Assembly: GCA_009993885.1 (NCBI GenBank)
Contig: JAACSN010000004.1
Coordinates: 59,106 to 123,105, forward strand
DNA from: Alphaproteobacteria bacterium
GTDB taxonomy: Bacteria; Pseudomonadota; Alphaproteobacteria; Caedimonadales; UBA9215
DNA length: 64,000 bases
Reading direction: 5' to 3'
Each line of letters starts with the position of its first letter. Within the stretch, counting starts at the first letter, position 1. A program made the translations under genes and the position numbers. The notes beneath the pieces were generated by a model. That model saw only the letters and a program-made list of their open reading frames with translations, was not told where the DNA came from and did no database searches. This document shows positions 1 to 55,503 of this stretch, one piece after another.

Positions 1-3000
1 GGCATAGAATTACCAAAATTCACCGAAGAAGACGGGCCTGAAGATTACATGCTGAAAGTGAATGAGCTTATCCAAGAGGCCAAGATCCCGAAAAAAGAAA
101 AATGGAAAGTTCGACGTTTCATCACTATAGGCCGTTTTCGTTTTGCACGCCTTGTTATGTTTCATGATCTAAGTCCGAAGAAATGGCCGAGCCATACGGA
201 TGTATCGACCAGTGAAATTGTGCAGAAACTATTTGCAGGATCTGATAGCGAACCTAGCAACGATCATGCTGACGATTACGATATAGATACACCTGAAGTT
301 GAGAAAGCCGTGCCATTGCTCATTACCTCTGCTGACGCTTCACAGCACAGTGCCTTGGTCGATGTAATGAAAGGCAAAAACATGGCTATTAAAGGACCTC
401 CAGGTACAGGAAAATCACAAACAATCACGAATATTATCGCTAATGCACTCGCGACAGGAAAATCAGTTTTGTTCTTAGCAGAGAAAATGGCCGCTTTGAA
501 TGTGGTGCATGAGCGGTTAAGTAAGGCGAATTTAGGGCCATATTGCCTCGAACTTCACTCTACAAAAGCCAAAAAAACCGAGGTACTAAAATCCATAGAG
601 GATCGTTTGAAATTAAGATCCACGAGAGGAAATACCAGTTCTCTTTCCTCAAAACTTCAAACTTTTAAACACCACAAAGATCATATCACAGAATATATTA
701 ATGCACTAAATTCTAACTTTGGTAAACAGAACAAGCCTGTCCATGATTATCTGTGGGGCGCACAGCTTCGGAAAACCCGCATTGGTGATCTCTTCTCGAT
801 AATAAGCCAATGCAAAATATCTTTTGAACAGGCCGACTTGTCCGAAAGCGAATTAAGTGCTCATGCCGGTGAGCTGGAAACAATAGTATGCCTTAAAAAA
901 CAAGTTGATGAAGAATCGGAAAACGGCAAACATCCATGGGACTTCGTTGGTAATACCGATTTAAACCCCTTCCAGCAGGATGAGTTAAAGCTGTTGATTG
1001 AAAAATGGAAAAACGAGCTTGCGAAGACCCAATCAAAACTGGAAGTCTTCAATAAGGCATTTGATCTCTCCATCGGCAATACCACGCAAGATATTAATAA
1101 GTTTTATGCCTGCCTAAATGATCTTATTAATTACGATACCAGCACATTGAATGAGGCTTTCATCGCCGATCTGGGAAATAAGGAAAAAGCGGCAGCCCTT
1201 GCTATTTTTGTTGATCGTATTCACGTTTACAGATCAGCCTTAAAAGAAATTCAATCCATGCAGAATGTGTTTGTAGCTATCGAAGATATCCAAGAGATAG
1301 AAAAGCATACACTGGTCGCAAAAGAAATTGACGCCCATAATATGACCGCACTCGACATATGGGCGCATGTCAAAAGTTTGGAAGAAGAACTCAAGCTATG
1401 GGACAGAAATCTTAAAACTCTTCTAGAGATCGGCAAAGGATTTGGTATTTCGAGAAACGAAGATCTGGACAAGATTTACGCATTGGCAGAGGTACCGGAT
1501 TATATCGCCTCCGTGCCACGCGATTATTTGCTCTTCCGAACAAACAATATTATCGATGAAACCAACGCACCACGTCTAAAAGCTGCCGCTGAGACACAAA
1601 AATGCATCCAAGAAAGTCTGAAGGATCAAGAGGAACACTATGATCTCTCAATGATGGGAGCACCCAACGAAATCCGCATGTATGCTGCAGTGCTTGATAA
1701 CGCCGGATTTTTTGCCATTCTCGATTCATCCTACCGTCAGGCAAAAAAGGTCATTACGCTGGCTTCTAAGCAAAAAGTTAAATTTGATCGAGGACAATCC
1801 GCCAATACACTGCGTGCGATCGCTGATAATAAAGAAGAAATGGAAAAGATCGAACAGGACGATCAGCTCCAGTTGATCTGTGGAGCTTCATTTAACGGTA
1901 TCAGAACTGACTTTAACAAGCTACAGCAGATCAATGAATGGGCAGCTGACGTCCGAAAACGCTACGTAGCAGGCAATGAATTTTCCCGAAATGTCCGCCA
2001 GTGGCTTTTAAAGGGTGATATGGAGGAGCTGGACTCTGTGAGAGAATTGGCAAGCGATGATCATTTTGTCGCACTGAAAAATAAAATAGCGGATATTAAA
2101 GGCAATGTCGCGCCCCACACTCCCATCAAAATATATCTAGACGGCCTGAGGAAGAAAATAGAAAAGCTGAGCATATTGAAAGATCAGCTTCAAAATATAG
2201 CCTCTGGTGAAGCGATTACCTTCGCCAATATCGCTGAGGATCTACCGCGCCTGCAAAATGCCAAGGAAGCGCGCGATACTGCCGAAAAAGACAATAGGGT
2301 TAAAAAGTTTTTTGGTGATTATTATGAAGGTGTCGAAACTAATATTGAGGATATTGATGTAACCGCTCGCTTTATAGGCGGTTGTCTGGCTATATCGAAG
2401 CTGGAGAATGTTTTTGATATTTTCTTAAACAAAGACTTTTTAAAAACATGGAAGAGCTTCAAAGACCAACTGAAAACATTGATCAATATTATTAACGCTA
2501 CAAAGAACGTTGCCACAGAAGTCGATGCCCACGCCAATATCTACTTCGACCCTCTTTTGAATGAAAATTACTGGTCAAATATAGATCTAGACGATCTAGT
2601 CAAACAGTTATCGGAAGCCTTGAACAAACCAGACGCTCTCAATCAATGGGTCAGTTTCAACGGACACTATGCCAAAGCCGCCCAAACAATTAAGAGGCAA
2701 TTGCTGCAAATATACGATCAAGAAAAGCTTAATTTTGAAACACTGCCCATGGCCTTTGAGTATATGGTTTATAGTGCCATAGCACGCGAAATTTACCACC
2801 GAAATCCGGTGCTTTTAAAAGCCAATGGCATGAGCTTGGAGAAAGCCAGAGCCAAAATTAAAGTGCTGGATCAAGAAATACTGCAGCTTCAGCAGCAAGA
2901 ACTTTGCAATAAACTCAATGCCTACAAGCCTCTGTACGGAAATGGTTATGGAAGGAGAAGCACCTGGACAGAAAGCGCGCTCATTCATAACGAAATTAAC

Positions 3001-4353
3001 AAACAGCGCCGTCATATTCCAATCAGAGATCTTATGAAGCGTGCTGCTAAGTCAATTCAAAAGACCAAGCCGTGCTTCCTTATGTCGCCATTGACCGTGG
3101 CGCAGTATCTTGACCCCGGAAAGTTTAAATTTGACCTTATTGTGATTGATGAAGCTTCGCAAATGCGCCCTGAGGACGCTTTGGGTGGTTGTGCACGTTC
3201 TAAACAAATCGTTGTTGTAGGCGACCCACAGCAACTGCCACCTACATCTTTCTTCCAATCAGCCGGAAAGGATAATGAAGACGAAGAAGAGGATTTTACG
3301 TCTGAGGCAATCATGGATATGGCGCTCTCCTCCTTCAGACCGTCTCGTATTTTGAGCCGCCATTATCGCTCTCAACATGAGAGTCTGATCGCTTTTTCCA
3401 ATTATCATTTTTACGATAAAAGCCTCGTTTTATTCCCATCTCCTATCAATAATCCAGACGAAATGGGCATAAAGCTAAAATATATCGGCGGTACTTACGC
3501 CTCAAATTCCAACATGAATGAAGTAGAGGCCATAGTAAAATCAGCTTTGGATTTCATGCGCAAACATCCTGATCGTAGCCTCGGAATTGCCACAATGAAT
3601 CAGGTGCAAAAGGATTTGATTGAAATCGAGATGGATCGAGCCTTTATTGATTACAAACACGCTGCAAAATACAAATCTAAATGGGAGAATACCCTCGAAT
3701 CATTTTTCGTGAAGAATCTAGAAAGCGTTCAAGGAGACGAACGTGATGCTATCTTTATTTCCACTGTTTACGGCCCAGATAAAAACGGAACCGTAATGCA
3801 ACGCTTTGGACCTATCAACCGCACAGACGGTTATAGACGTTTAAACGTTCTCTTTACCCGCGCAAAGAAAAACATGTTGGTTTTTACATCACTTAAACCT
3901 GAAGATATCAAAACCAGTGATAATTCCTCTCAAGGCCTAATAGCTTTAAAAGGCTTTTTAAGCTATGCGTCCAAAGGCATGATAGATCAAGGTATAGAAA
4001 CTCAGATGGATCCTGACAGCGACTTTGAAATATGGGTCAAGGAAAGACTAGAAAGCATCGGTTGCGAAGTACATCCGCAGGTTGGAGTAGCTAAATACCG
4101 AATTGATTTAGGGGTAAAGCATCCCAAATATCCATACGGTTATTTGATGGGCATAGAATGCGATGGTGCCACCTATCACTCCTCTAAATCAGCGCGAGAA
4201 CGAGATGTGATCAGACAACAAGTTTTGGAAGGATTAGGGTGGCGCATTTACCGAATTTGGTCGACGGATTGGTTTTCTAACCCAACGCAAGAGTTTGAAA
4301 AACTTAAAAACTACATTGAGACGCTTCTAAAAAATGAGGGTCTTAAAAAATAG
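1..4353 (+). CDS. SF1 (Upf1/DNA2-like, AAA_11/AAA_12-type) helicase fused to a C-terminal PD-(D/E)xK Vsr/DUF559-like endonuclease domain; 5'-partial
   Basis: The frame is open from nt 1 with no stop before the first ATG at 49. Walker A GPPGTGKS is at nt 394-417 and motif II DEASQ at nt 3148-3162. Further helicase motifs are VVVGDPQQLPP, RHYRSQHESLI, VQGDERD and LNVLFTRAK. The C-terminus reads GIECDGATYHSS..ERD..RQ..L...GW.I.RIWSTDW. Confidence 0.85.
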   Translation, partial: GIELPKFTEEDGPEDYMLKVNELIQEAKIPKKEKWKVRRFITIGRFRFARLVMFHDLSPKKWPSHTDVSTSEIVQKLFAGSDSEPSNDHADDYDIDTPEVEKAVPLLITSADASQHSALVDVMKGKNMAIKGPPGTGKSQTITNIIANALATGKSVLFLAEKMAALNVVHERLSKANLGPYCLELHSTKAKKTEVLKSIEDRLKLRSTRGNTSSLSSKLQTFKHHKDHITEYINALNSNFGKQNKPVHDYLWGAQLRKTRIGDLFSIISQCKISFEQADLSESELSAHAGELETIVCLKKQVDEESENGKHPWDFVGNTDLNPFQQDELKLLIEKWKNELAKTQSKLEVFNKAFDLSIGNTTQDINKFYACLNDLINYDTSTLNEAFIADLGNKEKAAALAIFVDRIHVYRSALKEIQSMQNVFVAIEDIQEIEKHTLVAKEIDAHNMTALDIWAHVKSLEEELKLWDRNLKTLLEIGKGFGISRNEDLDKIYALAEVPDYIASVPRDYLLFRTNNIIDETNAPRLKAAAETQKCIQESLKDQEEHYDLSMMGAPNEIRMYAAVLDNAGFFAILDSSYRQAKKVITLASKQKVKFDRGQSANTLRAIADNKEEMEKIEQDDQLQLICGASFNGIRTDFNKLQQINEWAADVRKRYVAGNEFSRNVRQWLLKGDMEELDSVRELASDDHFVALKNKIADIKGNVAPHTPIKIYLDGLRKKIEKLSILKDQLQNIASGEAITFANIAEDLPRLQNAKEARDTAEKDNRVKKFFGDYYEGVETNIEDIDVTARFIGGCLAISKLENVFDIFLNKDFLKTWKSFKDQLKTLINIINATKNVATEVDAHANIYFDPLLNENYWSNIDLDDLVKQLSEALNKPDALNQWVSFNGHYAKAAQTIKRQLLQIYDQEKLNFETLPMAFEYMVYSAIAREIYHRNPVLLKANGMSLEKARAKIKVLDQEILQLQQQELCNKLNAYKPLYGNGYGRRSTWTESALIHNEINKQRRHIPIRDLMKRAAKSIQKTKPCFLMSPLTVAQYLDPGKFKFDLIVIDEASQMRPEDALGGCARSKQIVVVGDPQQLPPTSFFQSAGKDNEDEEEDFTSEAIMDMALSSFRPSRILSRHYRSQHESLIAFSNYHFYDKSLVLFPSPINNPDEMGIKLKYIGGTYASNSNMNEVEAIVKSALDFMRKHPDRSLGIATMNQVQKDLIEIEMDRAFIDYKHAAKYKSKWENTLESFFVKNLESVQGDERDAIFISTVYGPDKNGTVMQRFGPINRTDGYRRLNVLFTRAKKNMLVFTSLKPEDIKTSDNSSQGLIALKGFLSYASKGMIDQGIETQMDPDSDFEIWVKERLESIGCEVHPQVGVAKYRIDLGVKHPKYPYGYLMGIECDGATYHSSKSARERDVIRQQVLEGLGWRIYRIWSTDWFSNPTQEFEKLKNYIETLLKNEGLKK

Positions 4354-47967: not shown

Positions 47968-49851
47968 ATGGTAAATCAGATGAAATTAATATTTAAATCA
48001 TTTTTAACATTGGCAATATTAATCGCAAATTTCTCACAAATAGATTGCCTTGCAAAACCGGCAAATAAAACAAGCATCAATCTAATAAAGCCTGCCGATC
48101 CTAAAACAGAAACCAAAGACGAACTCCTTCAAGAACTTCTCCCCAAAGAAGAGATAACAGAGTTTGACATCACAACACAAGAAAGTCCTCTTGATGTCGT
48201 TCGATCTGCCGAAACCTTAGAAGATTATGTACAGCCCTACGGCTTTAAAAATCCTCCCTCAAAAGAAGACCGCCTTTTACAAGAAAAAGGCCTGCAAATT
48301 GCCCCGGCAGAACTGGATAGACTTTTATATCCTCGTCCCGGAAAAACACAGGAAGAGGAGGAAAGCCCCCTCGCGTCAAAAGCACTCCTGAAATTAGACT
48401 TAAAGGGACAACAAGAAAACCTCGAGCCCTTTCAAATGGCTCGTAATCAAGCCTTAGTTCAAGACCTCGGCAACGGAGAGTTTGAAGTCGATGCAAGCTT
48501 TGAGCGTCAAATCCCAACATTAATTGATATGAACAAACTGGCCTATGCCATCGGAAAGCGCGGTACGTTAGACGGAGAATACGATAAACTCATAGATAAA
48601 TTAAAAGGAAATCTCAAAATAAGAGGCTGGGAAATCGAAGAATTTGCAGGCAAAACCGGCAAAGGAAACAAAAAAGACGATATCCCGGGTTTTGTCGCCT
48701 ATAACAAAGAACAAAATGTCATGACCGTTATTGTGAGAGGATCACAAACACGGGAAGATGATGACGGCTCCCCCGATTGGGAAGTTAACTTTGACGCTCA
48801 GCTCATCGACTTTCCCTTCGGTAAGGTTCATGGCGGTTTCTATAATCGTACAAAAGCCATGTTGCCCAATATTCAACGAGCCATGAATCGTTTTATTGAT
48901 GACTTGGATAACGAAACAAAATCTAAAATCAAAGTCGTTGTAAGCGGTCATAGCCAAGGAGCTGCCCTTGCGTCTATCCTTATGCCTCTTTTAGCGGAAA
49001 TTTACACGGCCAACGGAAAATTTGGCTCCAAGTTTAACAATGCCCTGTCAAATGTTTTTCAAGGCTACTTTATTTCAACACCTCGCGTATACTCGGGAGA
49101 TAGCGCCGTTAACTGGATTAATAGCGTCGTCGGAGAACATAATATGATTCGACAAAATGTCACGGGCGGTATTCTTGCAGACCCCGTTCCCGTTGGTTCT
49201 CCCGGGCGCACGATGACTGCTCTCCTAAGTCTTATACCCTTTTTCGGAGAAGGACTTGCCGAGAAATACGGCGGCGACAAGGGAACCAGATCCGTCGGCT
49301 ATTTAGCGGCAGATTGGTCTGGTGATGTGCTAACCCGTCAACTCGGAAATGATGCCTTAAGCCTTGTCGCAAGACGCGCTAAAGGCTATTTCTGGAATCG
49401 TTGGGATATCCTTGTAGATGCCGCAAAGAAGCCTTGGCATCTTCTTACCTTAAAAACACAAAAGAAACTCTTTACACAACTTATGTTAGAACCCGTCAAG
49501 GACGGCCTAACAACGCTGGTGGCTCCTTTACACTATGGCTCCACGAACTCCGGGGTTGAGGAAGGAGAAGGTTTGTTTAGGCGGGATATTGTTGCAGGTT
49601 ATAACGATAGCTCCCCCACCATGGCCGAACTGCTGGCTCAAGGCTTTCAAAAGAAAAAATCGGAGAGAGAAGGTCTCAGCGGCTTTATTCGAGGCGGCAT
49701 TGAAGAAGCAGCCCGACAAAAAGCAAATCTCCCCGACCTTGCTGCCGTTGCTTCGGGCATAAAAACAACTGTCACAGATGCGGCTAAAACAGTAGCAGGC
49801 GGCCTAAAAAGTGCTTTTTCCGGATTCAAAAAGAAACTCTTCGGACTTTAA
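47968..49851 (+). CDS. Secreted class-3 lipase-family (alpha/beta hydrolase) protein
   Basis: Signal peptide (M)KLIFKSFLTLAILIANFSQIDCLA. Nucleophile elbow VVVSGHSQGAALAS at nt ~48945-48959. It is preceded by RGS....D...DW..N and HGGF, typical of Lipase_3. Confidence 0.75.
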   Translation: MVNQMKLIFKSFLTLAILIANFSQIDCLAKPANKTSINLIKPADPKTETKDELLQELLPKEEITEFDITTQESPLDVVRSAETLEDYVQPYGFKNPPSKEDRLLQEKGLQIAPAELDRLLYPRPGKTQEEEESPLASKALLKLDLKGQQENLEPFQMARNQALVQDLGNGEFEVDASFERQIPTLIDMNKLAYAIGKRGTLDGEYDKLIDKLKGNLKIRGWEIEEFAGKTGKGNKKDDIPGFVAYNKEQNVMTVIVRGSQTREDDDGSPDWEVNFDAQLIDFPFGKVHGGFYNRTKAMLPNIQRAMNRFIDDLDNETKSKIKVVVSGHSQGAALASILMPLLAEIYTANGKFGSKFNNALSNVFQGYFISTPRVYSGDSAVNWINSVVGEHNMIRQNVTGGILADPVPVGSPGRTMTALLSLIPFFGEGLAEKYGGDKGTRSVGYLAADWSGDVLTRQLGNDALSLVARRAKGYFWNRWDILVDAAKKPWHLLTLKTQKKLFTQLMLEPVKDGLTTLVAPLHYGSTNSGVEEGEGLFRRDIVAGYNDSSPTMAELLAQGFQKKKSEREGLSGFIRGGIEEAARQKANLPDLAAVASGIKTTVTDAAKTVAGGLKSAFSGFKKKLFGL

Positions 49852-49918: not shown

Positions 49919-50857
49919 ATGGATAAAAAATATCTACTCACAACAGCTTTAGGTCTTGTCTTTATGAGCGGTTATGTTCATGCAGCAGTTACGCCTCACC
50001 CTTGGGTTCAAAAGGTTGTGGATGAAATTACAAAATACGGGCAAAGCGAAGCCTGTGCCGACGGGCGTGCCTTAAGAAAAGGGCACAACAACTGTTCGAC
50101 AAAGGACGGAGCTTCCATTGCAAAAATTGTTTGTACAACCCATGACCATATCTATCGTGAAAAATTTGAAAAAGGCCAGTGTGGTGTAAAATCAGCTAAA
50201 ATGTTTGGCGGTGTTGATGATGTCGGTGCCTATTTTGAAAGGGCAATCGACCTTGGAAAAGCCGATGCCATTGCCCTTGCTTGCCAAACACCGTTGGCAC
50301 AACTCAGAGGAAAACTCAAAGAAGTTGCTGAAAAGAAATGTGACGGCAACGGCGGTGTCAAACAAGCTGCGCCTGCACGCCCTGCGGCTGCGGCTCCTAT
50401 GCTCAAGCCTTCCGAACTTAAAAAGGGGGCAGGGTATATGGACGAACTCATGAAAGTTCTAAGGGACGGCCCTAAACTAAAGCCTGTCAATAGAAGGCTC
50501 AGCATCGGTGGTGCGTCAAAAACAACTACTGCAGGCGCGCCTTTGACTCTGGAGGCTGTTACGATTCCGGAAATTACAGACCCTGTCGTTAAGCAAGATC
50601 TGCTTACAGCAGCCGATCAGCTTAATAAGTCACTGCAAGCCCTTGTACAAGTCCTTGATTCAGGTGAAGCCGTACAAGCTGTCGGGCTTGATACCCTTAA
50701 CACCCTTACTCAAAAACTCAAAGGCGCGACAACACAACAAGAACTTGCAGCAGTTGTGAAAAAAAGTAACGATGAAGTCGTTGGGTGGACATCAGAAAAA
50801 GCCAAGAATAAACAATTGTTAGATAGCATGCGCAGCAAACCCCTCTTTGCGGAATAA
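49919..50857 (+). CDS. Secreted hypothetical protein with a Cys-containing N-domain, an Ala/Pro tract and a WH2-like motif
   Basis: Signal peptide MDKKYLLTTALGLVFMSGYVHA. WH2-like motif YMDELMKVLRDGPKLKPV at nt 50435-50488. Confidence 0.5.
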   Translation: MDKKYLLTTALGLVFMSGYVHAAVTPHPWVQKVVDEITKYGQSEACADGRALRKGHNNCSTKDGASIAKIVCTTHDHIYREKFEKGQCGVKSAKMFGGVDDVGAYFERAIDLGKADAIALACQTPLAQLRGKLKEVAEKKCDGNGGVKQAAPARPAAAAPMLKPSELKKGAGYMDELMKVLRDGPKLKPVNRRLSIGGASKTTTAGAPLTLEAVTIPEITDPVVKQDLLTAADQLNKSLQALVQVLDSGEAVQAVGLDTLNTLTQKLKGATTQQELAAVVKKSNDEVVGWTSEKAKNKQLLDSMRSKPLFAE

Positions 50858-50959
50858 GGCTCTATTTTACGATAACCTTAGAGGCAGCTTTTTAAAAGAA
50901 AGCTCTCGGCTCACAAAAAAGGCCGAGGGCTTTCGTTTTTTGGAGAGATTCCCCTCCTC

Positions 50960-52285
50960 TCATTCGGCATATAAATCGGCTCGTGTACCGGGGAGGCCTG
51001 AAGAGCCTTTGTCTTTGCTACGCTTGGTTGCAACCACTTGATAAAGCAAAATTGACCCGCTCCAAAAACCAAAAGAAACACCCGCTAAATAGGAAAGCCA
51101 CATACGATATTTCTCAAGACCAACGGCCTTAATCGCAGCTTCTTTATTGGATGATAAGCGTTGGCACCAGAGTTTGCAGGTCAAAGCGTAATGCTCTCTC
51201 CAACCTTCCACATCATGAATTTCAAAACCGTAGGCTTCCATAGCTTCAAGGGTTGTCGCGATGGGTGCTAATTCCGAACCGGGAAAAATATATTTTAAAA
51301 TCAGGCGCTTTTCCGGCGTAATAGATCGGGCACGCTTTTTATTCGCCTTAGCACGCCGCGCAATACCATGATTTAAAAAGGTTCCGTTGTCCCTCAAAAG
51401 CGAACGCACCTTCTTAAAATATTCCGGGAATTTATCTAAACCGATGTGTTCAAACATCCCGATGCTTGAAATACGATCATATTGACCGTCAAGGGTAATA
51501 TAATCTCGGATCTCAAGTGTCACCCGGTCTTGCAAACCCAAGTCTTTGACCTTGGCCGTTGCATAATCATATTGCGTTTGAGACAAAGTCACGCCGTGAG
51601 CCTTAACACCATAGTTCTTGGCGGCATAGCACACCAAAGCCCCCCAACCACACCCGATATCCAAAAATCTATCTCCTTTTTGCAAGCGTAATTTCCGGCA
51701 AATCATCTCGAGCTTATCCGTTTGGGCTTGCTCAAGGGAGGTAGACCAATCTTTAAAATAAGCACAGGAATACAGCATTTCAGGATCCAAAAAGAGTTTA
51801 TAAAACGCATTACTCACATCATAATGAAACTGAATAAAATCCTTGTTGTTACGCTGTTTATCGTCAAAGCCCGTTTCATCTTTTGCGTACCCGTGATCCA
51901 ACCGAGGCTTGAAACTTTTCACCAATAAAAAGGGCCACAATTTTTTTATAATAAAAAACTTATCCAGCTTTTTAAGATCCTTTTTCTTAGTACTGTTCCT
52001 TAGGGTTTGAATAAAATCCATAAGATCCTCGCCCCCTTCAATGAGAATATTTCCACACGCATAATGACGCATAATAGTTTCAAGATTAGGATGCTTTAAA
52101 AGAGAGGCAATAACGCCCTTATGGGCAACGGTAAGGGTCAAATCTGATTTACCGACTTCACCTAAAGGTATTTTTGAACCGTCCCATAAAATCACCGTAA
52201 TAGGAGCCTGAAGGGCTTCGGCCACATAGGATAAACAGTCCTTCAAGGACTTAATTAATTTCTCATCGGAGAAAATTGAACACAT
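50960..52285 (-). CDS. cfa: Cyclopropane-fatty-acyl-phospholipid synthase-family methyltransferase
   Basis: HYD.SN.FY.LFLD..M.YSCAYF; FLDIGCGWG; ISSIGMFEH.G. Confidence 0.88.
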   Translation of the reverse strand: MCSIFSDEKLIKSLKDCLSYVAEALQAPITVILWDGSKIPLGEVGKSDLTLTVAHKGVIASLLKHPNLETIMRHYACGNILIEGGEDLMDFIQTLRNSTKKKDLKKLDKFFIIKKLWPFLLVKSFKPRLDHGYAKDETGFDDKQRNNKDFIQFHYDVSNAFYKLFLDPEMLYSCAYFKDWSTSLEQAQTDKLEMICRKLRLQKGDRFLDIGCGWGALVCYAAKNYGVKAHGVTLSQTQYDYATAKVKDLGLQDRVTLEIRDYITLDGQYDRISSIGMFEHIGLDKFPEYFKKVRSLLRDNGTFLNHGIARRAKANKKRARSITPEKRLILKYIFPGSELAPIATTLEAMEAYGFEIHDVEGWREHYALTCKLWCQRLSSNKEAAIKAVGLEKYRMWLSYLAGVSFGFWSGSILLYQVVATKRSKDKGSSGLPGTRADLYAE

Positions 52286-53838: not shown

Positions 53839-55503
53839 TTAGAACTGTAGGGGTCTCGGATCTTGCGTAAAGCCCTGATAAGCGGTTTTATCCGCCTTAG
53901 AAATGCTGGTATCTTCGTAAAAAGGTTCATCCTCATTTTCAATGATTGTTGCCCGTAGAAAAATCACCAGCTCTGTTACGGTGCGGTCATTGGATTTCCC
54001 CTTAAAAAGCTCACCCAACAAGGGCACATCCTCAATTTCAGGCACGCCGTCCCTTTCGTTACTCGAACGCTCTTCCATCAATCCCCCCACAACAACAATC
54101 TCACCGGAATTCATGGATAAAATAGAATCCAGTTCGCGCACTTGGACTTCCGGCACCAAGGATTGAAGAGCTTGATTCGAGGCAATACCGACGGCCGGAT
54201 CAGGGACTTCCCTTGAGATCTGTGAAATGGTCGGGCGTAACGTCATGATAATACGACCGTTTTCGCTAATACTGGGATGAACATACATCATCAATCCAAT
54301 GGGAACGGTTTTGACATCGCTTGAATAATAGGTACGTTCTTGTTTATCAAAATAACTGTGTTCCCGCGTATAATTCAGCTTGAAATACACCTTATTCTTA
54401 GCGACCTTTAAAACAGCCGGATTATTATTCATAACCGTTAAGCGCGGATTCGACAGCGTTCGAACGGTTCCAAAATGGTTGAGCAAACTCAAGAGCCCCG
54501 TGATCTTTTGCGCATTTCCTCCAAGGGTAAAAACATTGCGAGGGGGCGGCAAAGTCTCATTCAAATGCCCCGGTGTTGCAATGTCTCCCAAAGGCATTTG
54601 CAAGACAAAATCGCCCTTAAGAGCGTTCCAATTAATACCTGTTTTAAACTGATCCTTAAGATTGACTTCCACAATTTTAGCTTCGATCAAAACCTGACGC
54701 TCAATACTTTTTTGTAAAATATCAAGATAACGCCTTAGTTGTTGGTGCTTGGCTTGCGTTGCATAAATAGAAATAATGCCCGCTTGTTTATGAATACTGT
54801 ATTTTCCTTGGGGAGGTTGATCGCCGTTTGCGGCAACGTCAGAAAAGTCATTTAAAATAATAGAAAGGTTATCGCTTAATTCCTCCCAGAAATCCGTCTT
54901 GGTTTCCGCCGTTAAATACGTATTCGAGCCGTTATCTTCATCGGGGCGTGTACCCCCTTCAAGGGTTGTAAAAACATCTGTTGCAATGGACAAGCGATTG
55001 CGGTTGGCCCGTGCCATCAACAAGAATTGTAAATTATAATTGTGAGCAAAAGGCGTGTCTTTTTCGATGCGTAAAATGGAATTATTAATACGATATCGCA
55101 ACCCTTGAGAGCGGCAAATTTCATCCACCACATCAATCATAGGACGTCCCGTTGCATGTAAAGTTGTTCCCCCTGTGACTTGCGGATCAATAATAATATC
55201 CACCCCAATTTGCTGGGCCAGCGCTAAAAAGAGCTCTTTCAACGGAACACTATTGGTTACCGTGACGGTCACATCTTTTTTAAAGGCAAGAGGAATGGGA
55301 GGAGGCGTATAAAAGGAAACGCGTTTTTTCTTATGCCGTTTTTGGAAAGGTTGAACAGGCGCCTTTGTTAATTGATCATAATCTTGTTTTTGATAAGCCA
55401 ATTTCGGATCATGGTATTGCCATTCTTTACGGGTATCACAACTGCTCAAGAAAAAAGCAGAAAAAAGCCCTAGAAAAAGAGTAAAAAATGCCTGCCTGTC
55501 CAT
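53839..55503 (-). CDS. Secretin-family outer-membrane lipoprotein (MshL/PilQ/GspD-like)
   Basis: Lipobox FFLSSC. C-terminal secretin core: LSNPRLTVMNN.PA...V......F; VP.LG.LF......R...ELVIFLRATII. Confidence 0.8.
   Translation of the reverse strand: MDRQAFFTLFLGLFSAFFLSSCDTRKEWQYHDPKLAYQKQDYDQLTKAPVQPFQKRHKKKRVSFYTPPPIPLAFKKDVTVTVTNSVPLKELFLALAQQIGVDIIIDPQVTGGTTLHATGRPMIDVVDEICRSQGLRYRINNSILRIEKDTPFAHNYNLQFLLMARANRNRLSIATDVFTTLEGGTRPDEDNGSNTYLTAETKTDFWEELSDNLSIILNDFSDVAANGDQPPQGKYSIHKQAGIISIYATQAKHQQLRRYLDILQKSIERQVLIEAKIVEVNLKDQFKTGINWNALKGDFVLQMPLGDIATPGHLNETLPPPRNVFTLGGNAQKITGLLSLLNHFGTVRTLSNPRLTVMNNNPAVLKVAKNKVYFKLNYTREHSYFDKQERTYYSSDVKTVPIGLMMYVHPSISENGRIIMTLRPTISQISREVPDPAVGIASNQALQSLVPEVQVRELDSILSMNSGEIVVVGGLMEERSSNERDGVPEIEDVPLLGELFKGKSNDRTVTELVIFLRATIIENEDEPFYEDTSISKADKTAYQGFTQDPRPLQF

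Follow-up and report, generated by a model that had tools for sequence, protein, structure and literature searches.

A conserved WH2-like segment in an exported orphan protein of Nucleicultrix-like symbionts, plausibly an element of the C-terminal module of its own family

The WH2 motifs of WASP, N-WASP, WAVE, WIP and verprolin share a simple scheme, made of a short helix, a Gly residue after the helix, and an L-[KR]-x-V sequence at a canonical spacing. A segment featuring the same elements resides in the product of the open reading frame (ORF) located at positions 49919..50857, on the plus strand, of the alphaproteobacterial DNA analyzed here, a stretch of 64,000 nucleotides referred to as the window. 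According to the ORF list and the translation, the product is an exported orphan protein of 312 amino acids. A preliminary description had assigned to it a WH2-like actin-monomer-binding motif preceded by an Ala/Pro tract, had compared it to the WH2 motifs with proline-rich lead-ins of bacterial effectors, and had suggested that the gene and an adjacent secreted lipase gene form a small host-manipulation locus. Bacterial effectors such as VopL/VopF, TARP, Sca2, BimA and RickA carry tandem WH2 motifs and/or oligomerize, have true poly-proline tracts, and are exported by type III secretion systems or as autotransporters. The protein of the window is similar to these effectors in that a proposed WH2 motif is found beside a Pro-containing tract in a host-associated bacterium. 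It differs from them in having one candidate motif, no proline run, a Sec signal and a length of 312 residues, and in lacking a beta-barrel domain and autotransporter or type III secretion features.

Two other systems are relevant to the comparison. MavH of Legionella pneumophila has a WH2-like helix, recognized from the conserved hydrophobic residues of a predicted helix, which was shown experimentally to bind actin (PMC10381072). The likeness lies in one helix on which a few hydrophobic residues are conserved, in a protein of a bacterium infecting amoebae. MavH, however, is exported as a substrate of type IV secretion, and is clustered on membranes by its CPI motif and a domain that binds phosphatidylinositol 3-phosphate, whereas the protein described here has a Sec signal and a disulfide-rich domain and lacks the MavH modules; the likeness is one of description, and no homology is claimed. 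The infectious form of Holospora obtusa contains periplasmic proteins, among which the 63-kDa PRP1 and an 89-kDa protein of the invasion tip, the latter reportedly carrying two actin-binding motifs (PMC9866348). These are signal peptide-bearing, periplasmic, host-exposed or secreted proteins of a nuclear symbiont of the Holosporales, but their sizes and hosts (a ciliate rather than an amoeba) are different, and again the likeness is by description, not by sequence. The Nucleicultrix-like lineage consists of obligate symbionts of protists, Candidatus Nucleicultrix amoebiphila inhabits the nuclei of amoebae, and the molecular determinants of Holospora infection are only partly understood (PMC11909080). 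The literature searched includes no paper linking WH2 to the Nucleicultrix/Holosporales group.

We lean toward the view that the WH2-like segment is an integral element of the C-terminal module of an exported envelope or interface protein, and that its likeness to WH2 is coincidental. The segment would be conserved because it is part of the C-terminal module of its own family. The organization of the family is telling in this respect. The same plan is common to 21/21 members, and includes a signal peptide, a six-Cys domain of ~120 residues, an Ala/Pro linker with the sequence PARP, and an amphipathic helix, which ends at a proline and is followed by a '+phi[ST]phiGG' element, an 'IPE' element and long C-terminal helices. 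The order helix, Pro, loop, GG element, IPE, long helix is retained in members down to ~20% identity.

In the window, an AGGAAA-type ribosome-binding site is found 5' of the ORF, and all the parts of the protein are encoded, as the ORF itself, by the plus strand. Direct reading of the sequence supports the Sec-type signal peptide previously noticed, which spans residues 1-22 (49919..49984) with a predicted cleavage after VHA. The peptide, MDKKYLLTTALGLVFMSGYVHA followed by AV, includes the n-region MDKK, a hydrophobic core and an AXA-like site (VHA before A). An equivalent N-terminus is found in 21/21 members of the family, and in an AlphaFold2 (AF2) model the region has a predicted local distance difference test (pLDDT) score <50. 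The Cys-containing N-terminal domain was also correctly recognized. It spans residues 23-146 (49985..50356), is all-alpha in the AF2 model and the 21-sequence alignment, and has six Cys residues (C46, C59, C72, C88, C122, C141), all invariant in 21/21 members, from which three disulfides may be hypothesized. Residues 25-148 are modeled as helices throughout, with pLDDT 85-94. A flexible Ala/Pro-rich linker follows (residues 147-163, 50357..50407), as indicated by pLDDT and the alignment. The PARP sequence is retained family-wide, while the length of the linker is variable, and expanded in the members P0014 and P0011. The helix at residues 164-183 (50408..50467), predicted to be amphipathic, is found in both AF2 models with pLDDT 69-83 (69-75 when the 21-sequence alignment is used; the mean pLDDT of that model is 71.6), and its C-terminal part is the presumed WH2 helix. 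The C-terminal helical region, defined by AF2 and the alignment, covers residues 222-306 (50582..50836), and is made of helices 222-247, 258-269 and 273-306, with pLDDT about 71-80. A K..LL.AA..L...L pattern is visible in this region across the family in the 21-sequence alignment.

The WH2 look-alike is embedded in a conserved island, GYMDELMKVLRDGPKLKPVNRRLSIGG (residues 172-198, 50432..50512), defined by orthologue identity. The mean identity among seven orthologues, to which all the conservation figures refer, is 0.87-0.89 for the island, 0.86 for the N-terminal domain, 0.62-0.76 for the flanks and 0.64 for the C-terminal helices, and GPKLKPVNRRLSIGG is the best-conserved 15-mer outside the N-terminal domain. 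The motif is thus not a variable spot in an otherwise conserved protein (0.87 compared to 0.86 for the N-terminal domain). The core persists in P0010 (YMEELRRVLQEGPKLKPV) and P0014 (YMDELRIVLKNPQLRPV), which have an overall identity of 23-29%. Judged from this conservation, the segment is functional in some sense. In the motif alignment of seven sequences, M174, E176, L177, V180, L181, P185, L187 and P189 are family invariants, and conservation continues for 8 residues after LKPV. Distant members lacking LKxV, such as P0011 (VYLDALKLALTQPQQLTP) and P0020 (VYIQALKKVLKEPKPH), retain the helix, which is therefore ancestral, LKPV being specific to one subclade. The NRRLSIGG sequence at the end of the island aligns with a family-wide element of the GKVTIGG type, represented in distant members by GKVTIGG or RDGKVILGG, and is probably an ancestral structural element.

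These features can be accommodated in a simple scheme. The gene product would be a protein of two modules, exported by the Sec pathway in a Nucleicultrix-like intracellular symbiont and restricted to its lineage. Upon export and cleavage of the signal peptide, the N-terminal domain would be locked by three disulfides, and the Ala/Pro linker would tether a C-terminal module starting with helix 164-183. The helix would be followed by an invariant Pro-x-Leu-x-Pro turn, by the '+phi[ST]phiGG' element (here NRRLSIGG) and by the long helices. The presumed WH2 would correspond to the end of the ancestral helix and to the turn, and serve as a structural or partner-docking element of the C-terminal module. 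The latter is presumably the exchangeable, ligand-specific part of the protein, the N-terminal domain being plausibly the constant part, because it is common to paralogues that have a different C-terminal half. In the paralogues P0007-9 the six-Cys domain is kept, while helix, island and C-terminal helices are exchanged as one block; the N-terminal domain seems to act as a carrier of interchangeable C-terminal modules. The protein would most likely act in the bacterial envelope or periplasm, or at the bacterium-host interface, with a precedent in the Holospora periplasmic proteins released into the host. The export signal, the invariant Cys residues, the layout of the domains, the pattern of conservation and the failure of the WH2 profiles are observed; disulfides, localization and docking role are inferred.

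P0007, P0008 and P0009 reside at loci L012 (3924-4361) and L013 (5836-6270). Their C-terminal half consists of 2-3 repeats of a unit such as AKAVYxAIxxLxNxKITxxMAVEAANxA.

Several observations weigh against regarding the segment as an integral part of a folded module. Residues 186-211, which include PKLKPVNRRLSIGG and the whole stretch from LKPV to NRRLSIGG, have pLDDT <50 in the AF2 model from the 21-sequence alignment, as have residues 151-159 of the linker, and the WH2-like helix is therefore flanked on both sides by low-confidence segments, a sign of accessibility and disorder for which pLDDT is a proxy only. Low-confidence flanks would better fit a linear motif folding upon binding than a packed element of a domain. 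Moreover, the island is conserved like the folded N-terminal domain, and is kept in proteins with 23-29% identity, which is unusually strong for a connecting turn. Finally, the lifestyle of a symbiont and the exported nature of the protein would favor a target in the host.

The protein belongs, as judged from sequence searches, to an orphan family restricted to Nucleicultricaceae/Holosporales. Nine relatives were found in a search of 5.8 billion proteins, among which the orthologue P0004, a hypothetical protein of Candidatus Nucleicultrix amoebiphila (61% identity), and a protein from a metagenome-assembled genome (MAG) of Nucleicultricaceae. An exhaustive profile search of 1.84 billion representatives yielded 13 clusters at E<=1e-3. 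A genome scan with a 10-sequence alignment, in which 3 genome loci only were found, added MAGs of Holosporales and Nucleicultricaceae, plus one MAG labeled Thiotrichales. As the relatives occur in N. amoebiphila, Nucleicultricaceae and Holosporales, the window comes from a Nucleicultrix-like, obligately host-associated lineage. Being conserved, exported and private to the lineage, a protein with a peptide-like conserved island may reasonably be considered a candidate host-interface factor.

How close the segment is to a WH2 motif was assessed in various ways. The string in which the motif had been read, AAPARPAAAAPMLKPSELKKGAGYMDELMKVLRDGPKLKPVNRR, corresponds to residues 150-193. Nucleotides 50435-50488 encode the core, YMDELMKVLRDGPKLKPV (residues 173-190), and the 15-residue string originally aligned to WASP corresponds to residues 176-190. 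The register of the core is confirmed by hhalign, and the core is negative with the Pfam WH2 profile. The position-by-position fit to LLxxIxxGxxLKKV is real for the window protein. The consensus positions L177 (-4), L181 (0), G184 (+3), L187 (+6), basic residue 188 (+7) and V190 (+9) are all in register, and three of the five WH2-invariant positions (L177, L181 and L187) coincide with family invariants, G184 being kept in 6/7 sequences. L187-K188-P189-V190 is set at the canonical spacing (L181+6=L187), with an invariant Leu, a conserved basic residue, and V or M at the last position. Other positions are discordant. The second 'LL' position (-3) is M/M/K/T/T/R/R in the family, as opposed to an invariant L in 8 verified WH2 motifs. 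An alternative register of the helix, starting from Y173-M174..L177, is conserved, but implies a linker of 9 residues; L177 and L181 are invariant. Pro189 is invariant at the third LKKV position, where controls have K, R, S or N, and the two family-invariant prolines (+4 and +8) are located where canonical WH2 motifs have none. The canonical pattern, allowing K/R/S/N at the third LKKV position, is consequently not matched, the residue being Pro. The looser pattern [LIVM][LIVM]xx[LIVM]xxGxxL[KR]x[VT] is expected 0.037 times per window, which corresponds to 2e-6 per residue, or about one match per proteome of ~0.5 million residues. Hence, the resemblance holds as an in-register match to the consensus, but its significance does not exceed what a pattern found about once per genome would give by chance. 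A second WH2-like match was not found within the protein.

Profile comparisons were uniformly unfavorable. The search with the Pfam WH2 profile (PF02205, gathering threshold 23.1 bits), proposed as a check of the motif, returned no match at E<=10 for the whole protein or for segments of 55, 32 and 24 amino acids, the isolated motif included. WASP, N-WASP (both motifs), WAVE1/2, WIP, WIRE and Vrp1 scored 35-52 bits as controls, and thymosin beta-4 14 bits. A WH2 model of our own, built from the verified controls plus thymosin beta-4, aligned the candidate in the right register (RDGPKLK against rkGiqLK), but the scores of 0-4 bits, for the orthologues as well as for the candidate, did not rise above the background set by segments of other proteins of the window. 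The closely similar profile A4, made from the same controls without thymosin, recognizes in the PDB a number of divergent, verified WH2 motifs, those of INF2 (7e-8, 35 bits), MIM (1.6e-7), Cobl (7.5e-4, 22 bits), the bacterial VopL (1.8e-3, 20.9 bits) and Spire (0.04, 16.6 bits); the WH2 of VopL thus scores 20.9 bits with A4, versus 0-4 bits of the candidate with our own model. In the reverse search, the family-motif profiles A2 and A5 matched no WH2 chain in the PDB at E<=10. Alignment of the motif to the WH2 alignment by hhalign covered 15 columns, with a probability of 2.8% and P=0.016, in the register originally chosen, LMKVLRDGPKLKPVN against LLDQIRQGIQLNKTP. The alignment of the motif alone, used in a word-index search of 5.8 billion proteins, matched nothing, the family itself included, and the search is therefore uninformative on the presence of the motif in other architectures. 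None of the profile criteria tested places the protein in the WH2 family. The motif pointed out in the preliminary description is strongly conserved among orthologues, but its assignment as an actin-monomer-binding WH2 finds no statistical support in the Pfam, own-model, reverse PDB or hhalign comparisons. Compared with WH2, the candidate also has a conserved block extending beyond LKPV, and a predicted helix of ~20 residues that is ancestral to the family, LKxV being missing in many of its members.

One distant member of the family, P0018, contains at residues 226-246 (NKSALLAEIKKVKSNLRKVDQ) a considerably closer WH2 look-alike, ALLAEIKKVKSNLRKV, which scores 21 bits on our own WH2 model. The single Pfam WH2 match obtained in the family (E=0.026) is presumably at the P0018 site, the member not being attributed. 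The P0018 look-alike is most likely a chance match in the Lys/Leu-rich C-terminal helix common to all members; being placed inside a family-wide structural helix, it suggests that WH2 matches arise by chance in this family.

The segment might nonetheless be a functional, highly divergent WH2-like motif binding G-actin, a reading which we regard as unlikely. According to this view, the protein would be released from the periplasm or the bacterial surface into the cytoplasm or nucleoplasm of the amoeba, helix 173-183 would fit the barbed-face cleft of G-actin, and LKPV would run along the actin surface. A single WH2 would sequester or cap actin, or nucleate filaments only if clustered on the bacterial surface or through C-terminal oligomerization, as MavH is on membranes. 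The key positions, in canonical register and spacing and aligned in the same register by hhalign, the conservation of the motif in orthologues, P0010 and P0014, and a modeled helix preceded by a flexible linker and followed by a low-confidence segment, are all consistent with this reading. The lead-in is genuinely proline-rich in P0014 (PARPATAPPPRAIPSRPAPPQRPAPRPS). The lineage (Nucleicultrix, Nucleicultricaceae, Holosporales) is host-associated, and Holospora periplasmic proteins with signal peptides do reach the host, one of them reportedly with actin-binding motifs (PMC9866348). MavH, in which a single, profile-negative WH2-like helix binds actin (PMC10381072), is an obvious precedent; as the WH2 motif is low in information, and a profile-negative helix may bind actin, the segment keeps some chance of binding actin despite the negative profiles. 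Against this stand the scores just reported, with no Pfam WH2 match where controls reach 35-52 bits and thymosin beta-4 14 bits, 0-4 bits on our own model where VopL (20.9), Cobl (22), Spire (16.6) and INF2 (35) score well on the comparable A4, and no WH2 chain in the reverse search. Position -3 is not a conserved hydrophobic residue, Pro is invariant at +4 and +8, and the helix is older than LKPV in the family. In addition, a Sec signal and a disulfide-rich domain come with no secretion-system context, and entry of Nucleicultrix into nuclei reportedly takes place at mitosis and does not involve actin tails (bioRxiv 10.64898/2026.08.23.746248). The Ala/Pro tract of the preliminary description is a short Ala/Pro linker, APARPAAAAP, with no run of prolines, and is neither proline-rich nor a poly-proline tract of the profilin type. 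Taken together, the sequence data make WH2-type actin binding by the segment doubtful. In its most far-reaching version, which seems rather improbable, this reading takes the island for a true G-actin-binding peptide of the WH2 type, diverged to the extreme, in a Sec-exported family private to Nucleicultrix-like nuclear or intracellular symbionts of amoebae, and has the protein released from periplasm or surface into the host as Holospora periplasmic proteins are. Were actin binding true, WH2-like sequence space would be extended by a variant with prolines framing the LKxV leucine, and the protein would be the first actin-targeting Holosporales factor defined at the sequence level. Nuclear actin would be a possible target, and the protein could help to understand how symbionts residing in nuclei cope with the actin of the host, perhaps that of the nucleus. 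If actin is not bound, the case calls for caution, since about one match to the minimal WH2 consensus is to be expected in a small genome, and such matches may even be conserved for unrelated reasons.

Immediately downstream of LKPV, NRRLSIGG (residues 191-198, 50489-50512) conforms to the R-R-x-S-hydrophobic (Kemptide-like) consensus of protein kinase A (PKA), and is invariant in the 7 orthologues. The island could accordingly host another host-directed short linear motif, KLKPVNRRLSIGG being a phosphorylation or docking site for basophilic kinases (PKA/AGC), or a basic targeting patch, in a protein released into the host, in which the preceding helix would be a generic docking helix. NRRLSIGG resembles Kemptide, LRRASLG; the form NRR[LIM]S[IL]GG is invariant in 7 orthologues within the best-conserved 15-mer outside the N-terminal domain, and the stretch is part of the segment with pLDDT <50. 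Yet RRxS is specific to a subclade, being replaced by RGRLNS in P0010, RDGKVILGG in P0014 and GKVTIGG in distant members. Such a distribution points away from a kinase site and toward an ancestral structural element of the '+phi[ST]phiGG' type. The sequence RRxS plus a hydrophobic residue carries, moreover, very little information, and by a rough estimate is expected about once per window; exposure to the host is hypothetical. The kinase-type reading is very improbable. Explanations of some other kind take what likelihood is left.

Attempts to place the protein among known folds or families gave no result. Foldseek searches of both AF2 models against the PDB and the viral models of BFVD yielded no match at E<0.1. 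Pfam and NCBIfam searches of the whole protein, its halves and the isolated motif returned nothing meaningful, and the best library matches, bMG3 (E=0.04-0.13) and Sigma70_r3 (E=0.09), were taken as chance. Scanning the 21 members against Pfam revealed no family in common, and one member with a sub-threshold WH2 match, apparently located in a helix other than that of the candidate. The sole match of the family profile in the PDB sequence search, Erv1/ALR (E=0.8), was likewise rejected as chance.

The N-terminal domain contains at 50132-50158 (residues 72-80, VCTTHDHIY-R) a C-x-x-H-D-x-x-Y-R sequence mirroring the CARHDFGYRN of group XIV secreted phospholipases A2 (PLA2), and the gene with the PLA2-like motif adjoins the lipase gene. 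H75, D76 and Y79 are invariant in 10 close relatives, while the stretch is deleted in the distant members P0010-P0020. Membership in group XIV secreted PLA2 was rejected at the level of the domain. The hhalign alignment of the domain to a Streptomyces PLA2, a comparison sequence verified to be 1FAZ, covers 14 columns only, with a probability of 1.7%; there is no Pfam PLA2 match, no PLA2 is found among the top 50 Foldseek matches in the PDB, and the His-Asp pair is missing in P0010-P0020.

The adjacent lipase gene previously noticed is confirmed. The gene (47968..49851, plus strand) encodes a class-3 lipase of 627 amino acids, with a signal-peptide-like N-terminus and a GHSQG nucleophile elbow (Pfam Lipase_3, 1.5e-8). 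The Pfam domain covers residues 255-349 only, and the long N- and C-terminal extensions are unannotated. The lipase gene is located 67 bp upstream of the ORF, and the gap contains no promoter-like or terminator-like site. An intrinsic-terminator-like hairpin (50919-50933) with a T-run, detected by sequence scan, follows the ORF on the same strand (50919..50943). Co-transcription of the two genes is possible, though the indications are weak. The pair is kept between ClpX and DapB in relatives with 95% and 78% identity (P0001 and P0002 loci), and lipase adjacency is missing in the N. amoebiphila, P0006 and P0020 loci. In N. amoebiphila the neighbors are genes for a glucosaminidase, a small hypothetical protein, a branched-chain amino-acid transporter and the tyrosyl-tRNA synthetase. 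The two genes are paired at the level of the genus only, and are not a conserved functional unit. The surroundings in the window are housekeeping genes (Lon, ClpX, DapB, RpoA, Adk, SecY, ribosomal proteins), with one lone secretin. The GC content is unremarkable, and the composition of the window shows no sign of a horizontally acquired island. No secretion-system genes flank the ORF in the window or at the N. amoebiphila locus, and no export route beyond Sec is evident. With an adjacency limited to relatives with 78-95% identity, housekeeping surroundings and no compositional anomaly, the case for a host-manipulation locus is weak.

Other features of the region deserve mention. A cyclopropane-fatty-acyl-phospholipid synthase gene (50960-52285, minus strand; Pfam CMAS, 1e-89) is located between the gene with the WH2-like segment and dapB, both in the window and in the 95% identical relative (L010), and is missing at the loci of the 78% identical relative (L007, L008). 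Its presence or absence among close relatives points to a recent gene gain or loss. The lone secretin gene (53839-55503, minus strand; Pfam Secretin, 2.6e-35), which has a lipoprotein-like N-terminus (..FLSSC), is surrounded by housekeeping genes, and further genes for secretion or pili were not seen in its vicinity. In the equivalent region of L010, a TPR protein and a 392-aa secretin were called. The genes for the orthologue of N. amoebiphila and for P0020, the latter encoded in a MAG of unclassified Pseudomonadota, are both located a few kb downstream of the L25 / peptidyl-tRNA hydrolase / YchF trio (L001 689-3040 and L004 3863-6313), which suggests that the trio-linked site is the ancestral position of the gene, changed in the lineage of the window. 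At the very start of the window, an ORF of 1434 amino acids spans positions 49-4353 of the plus strand.

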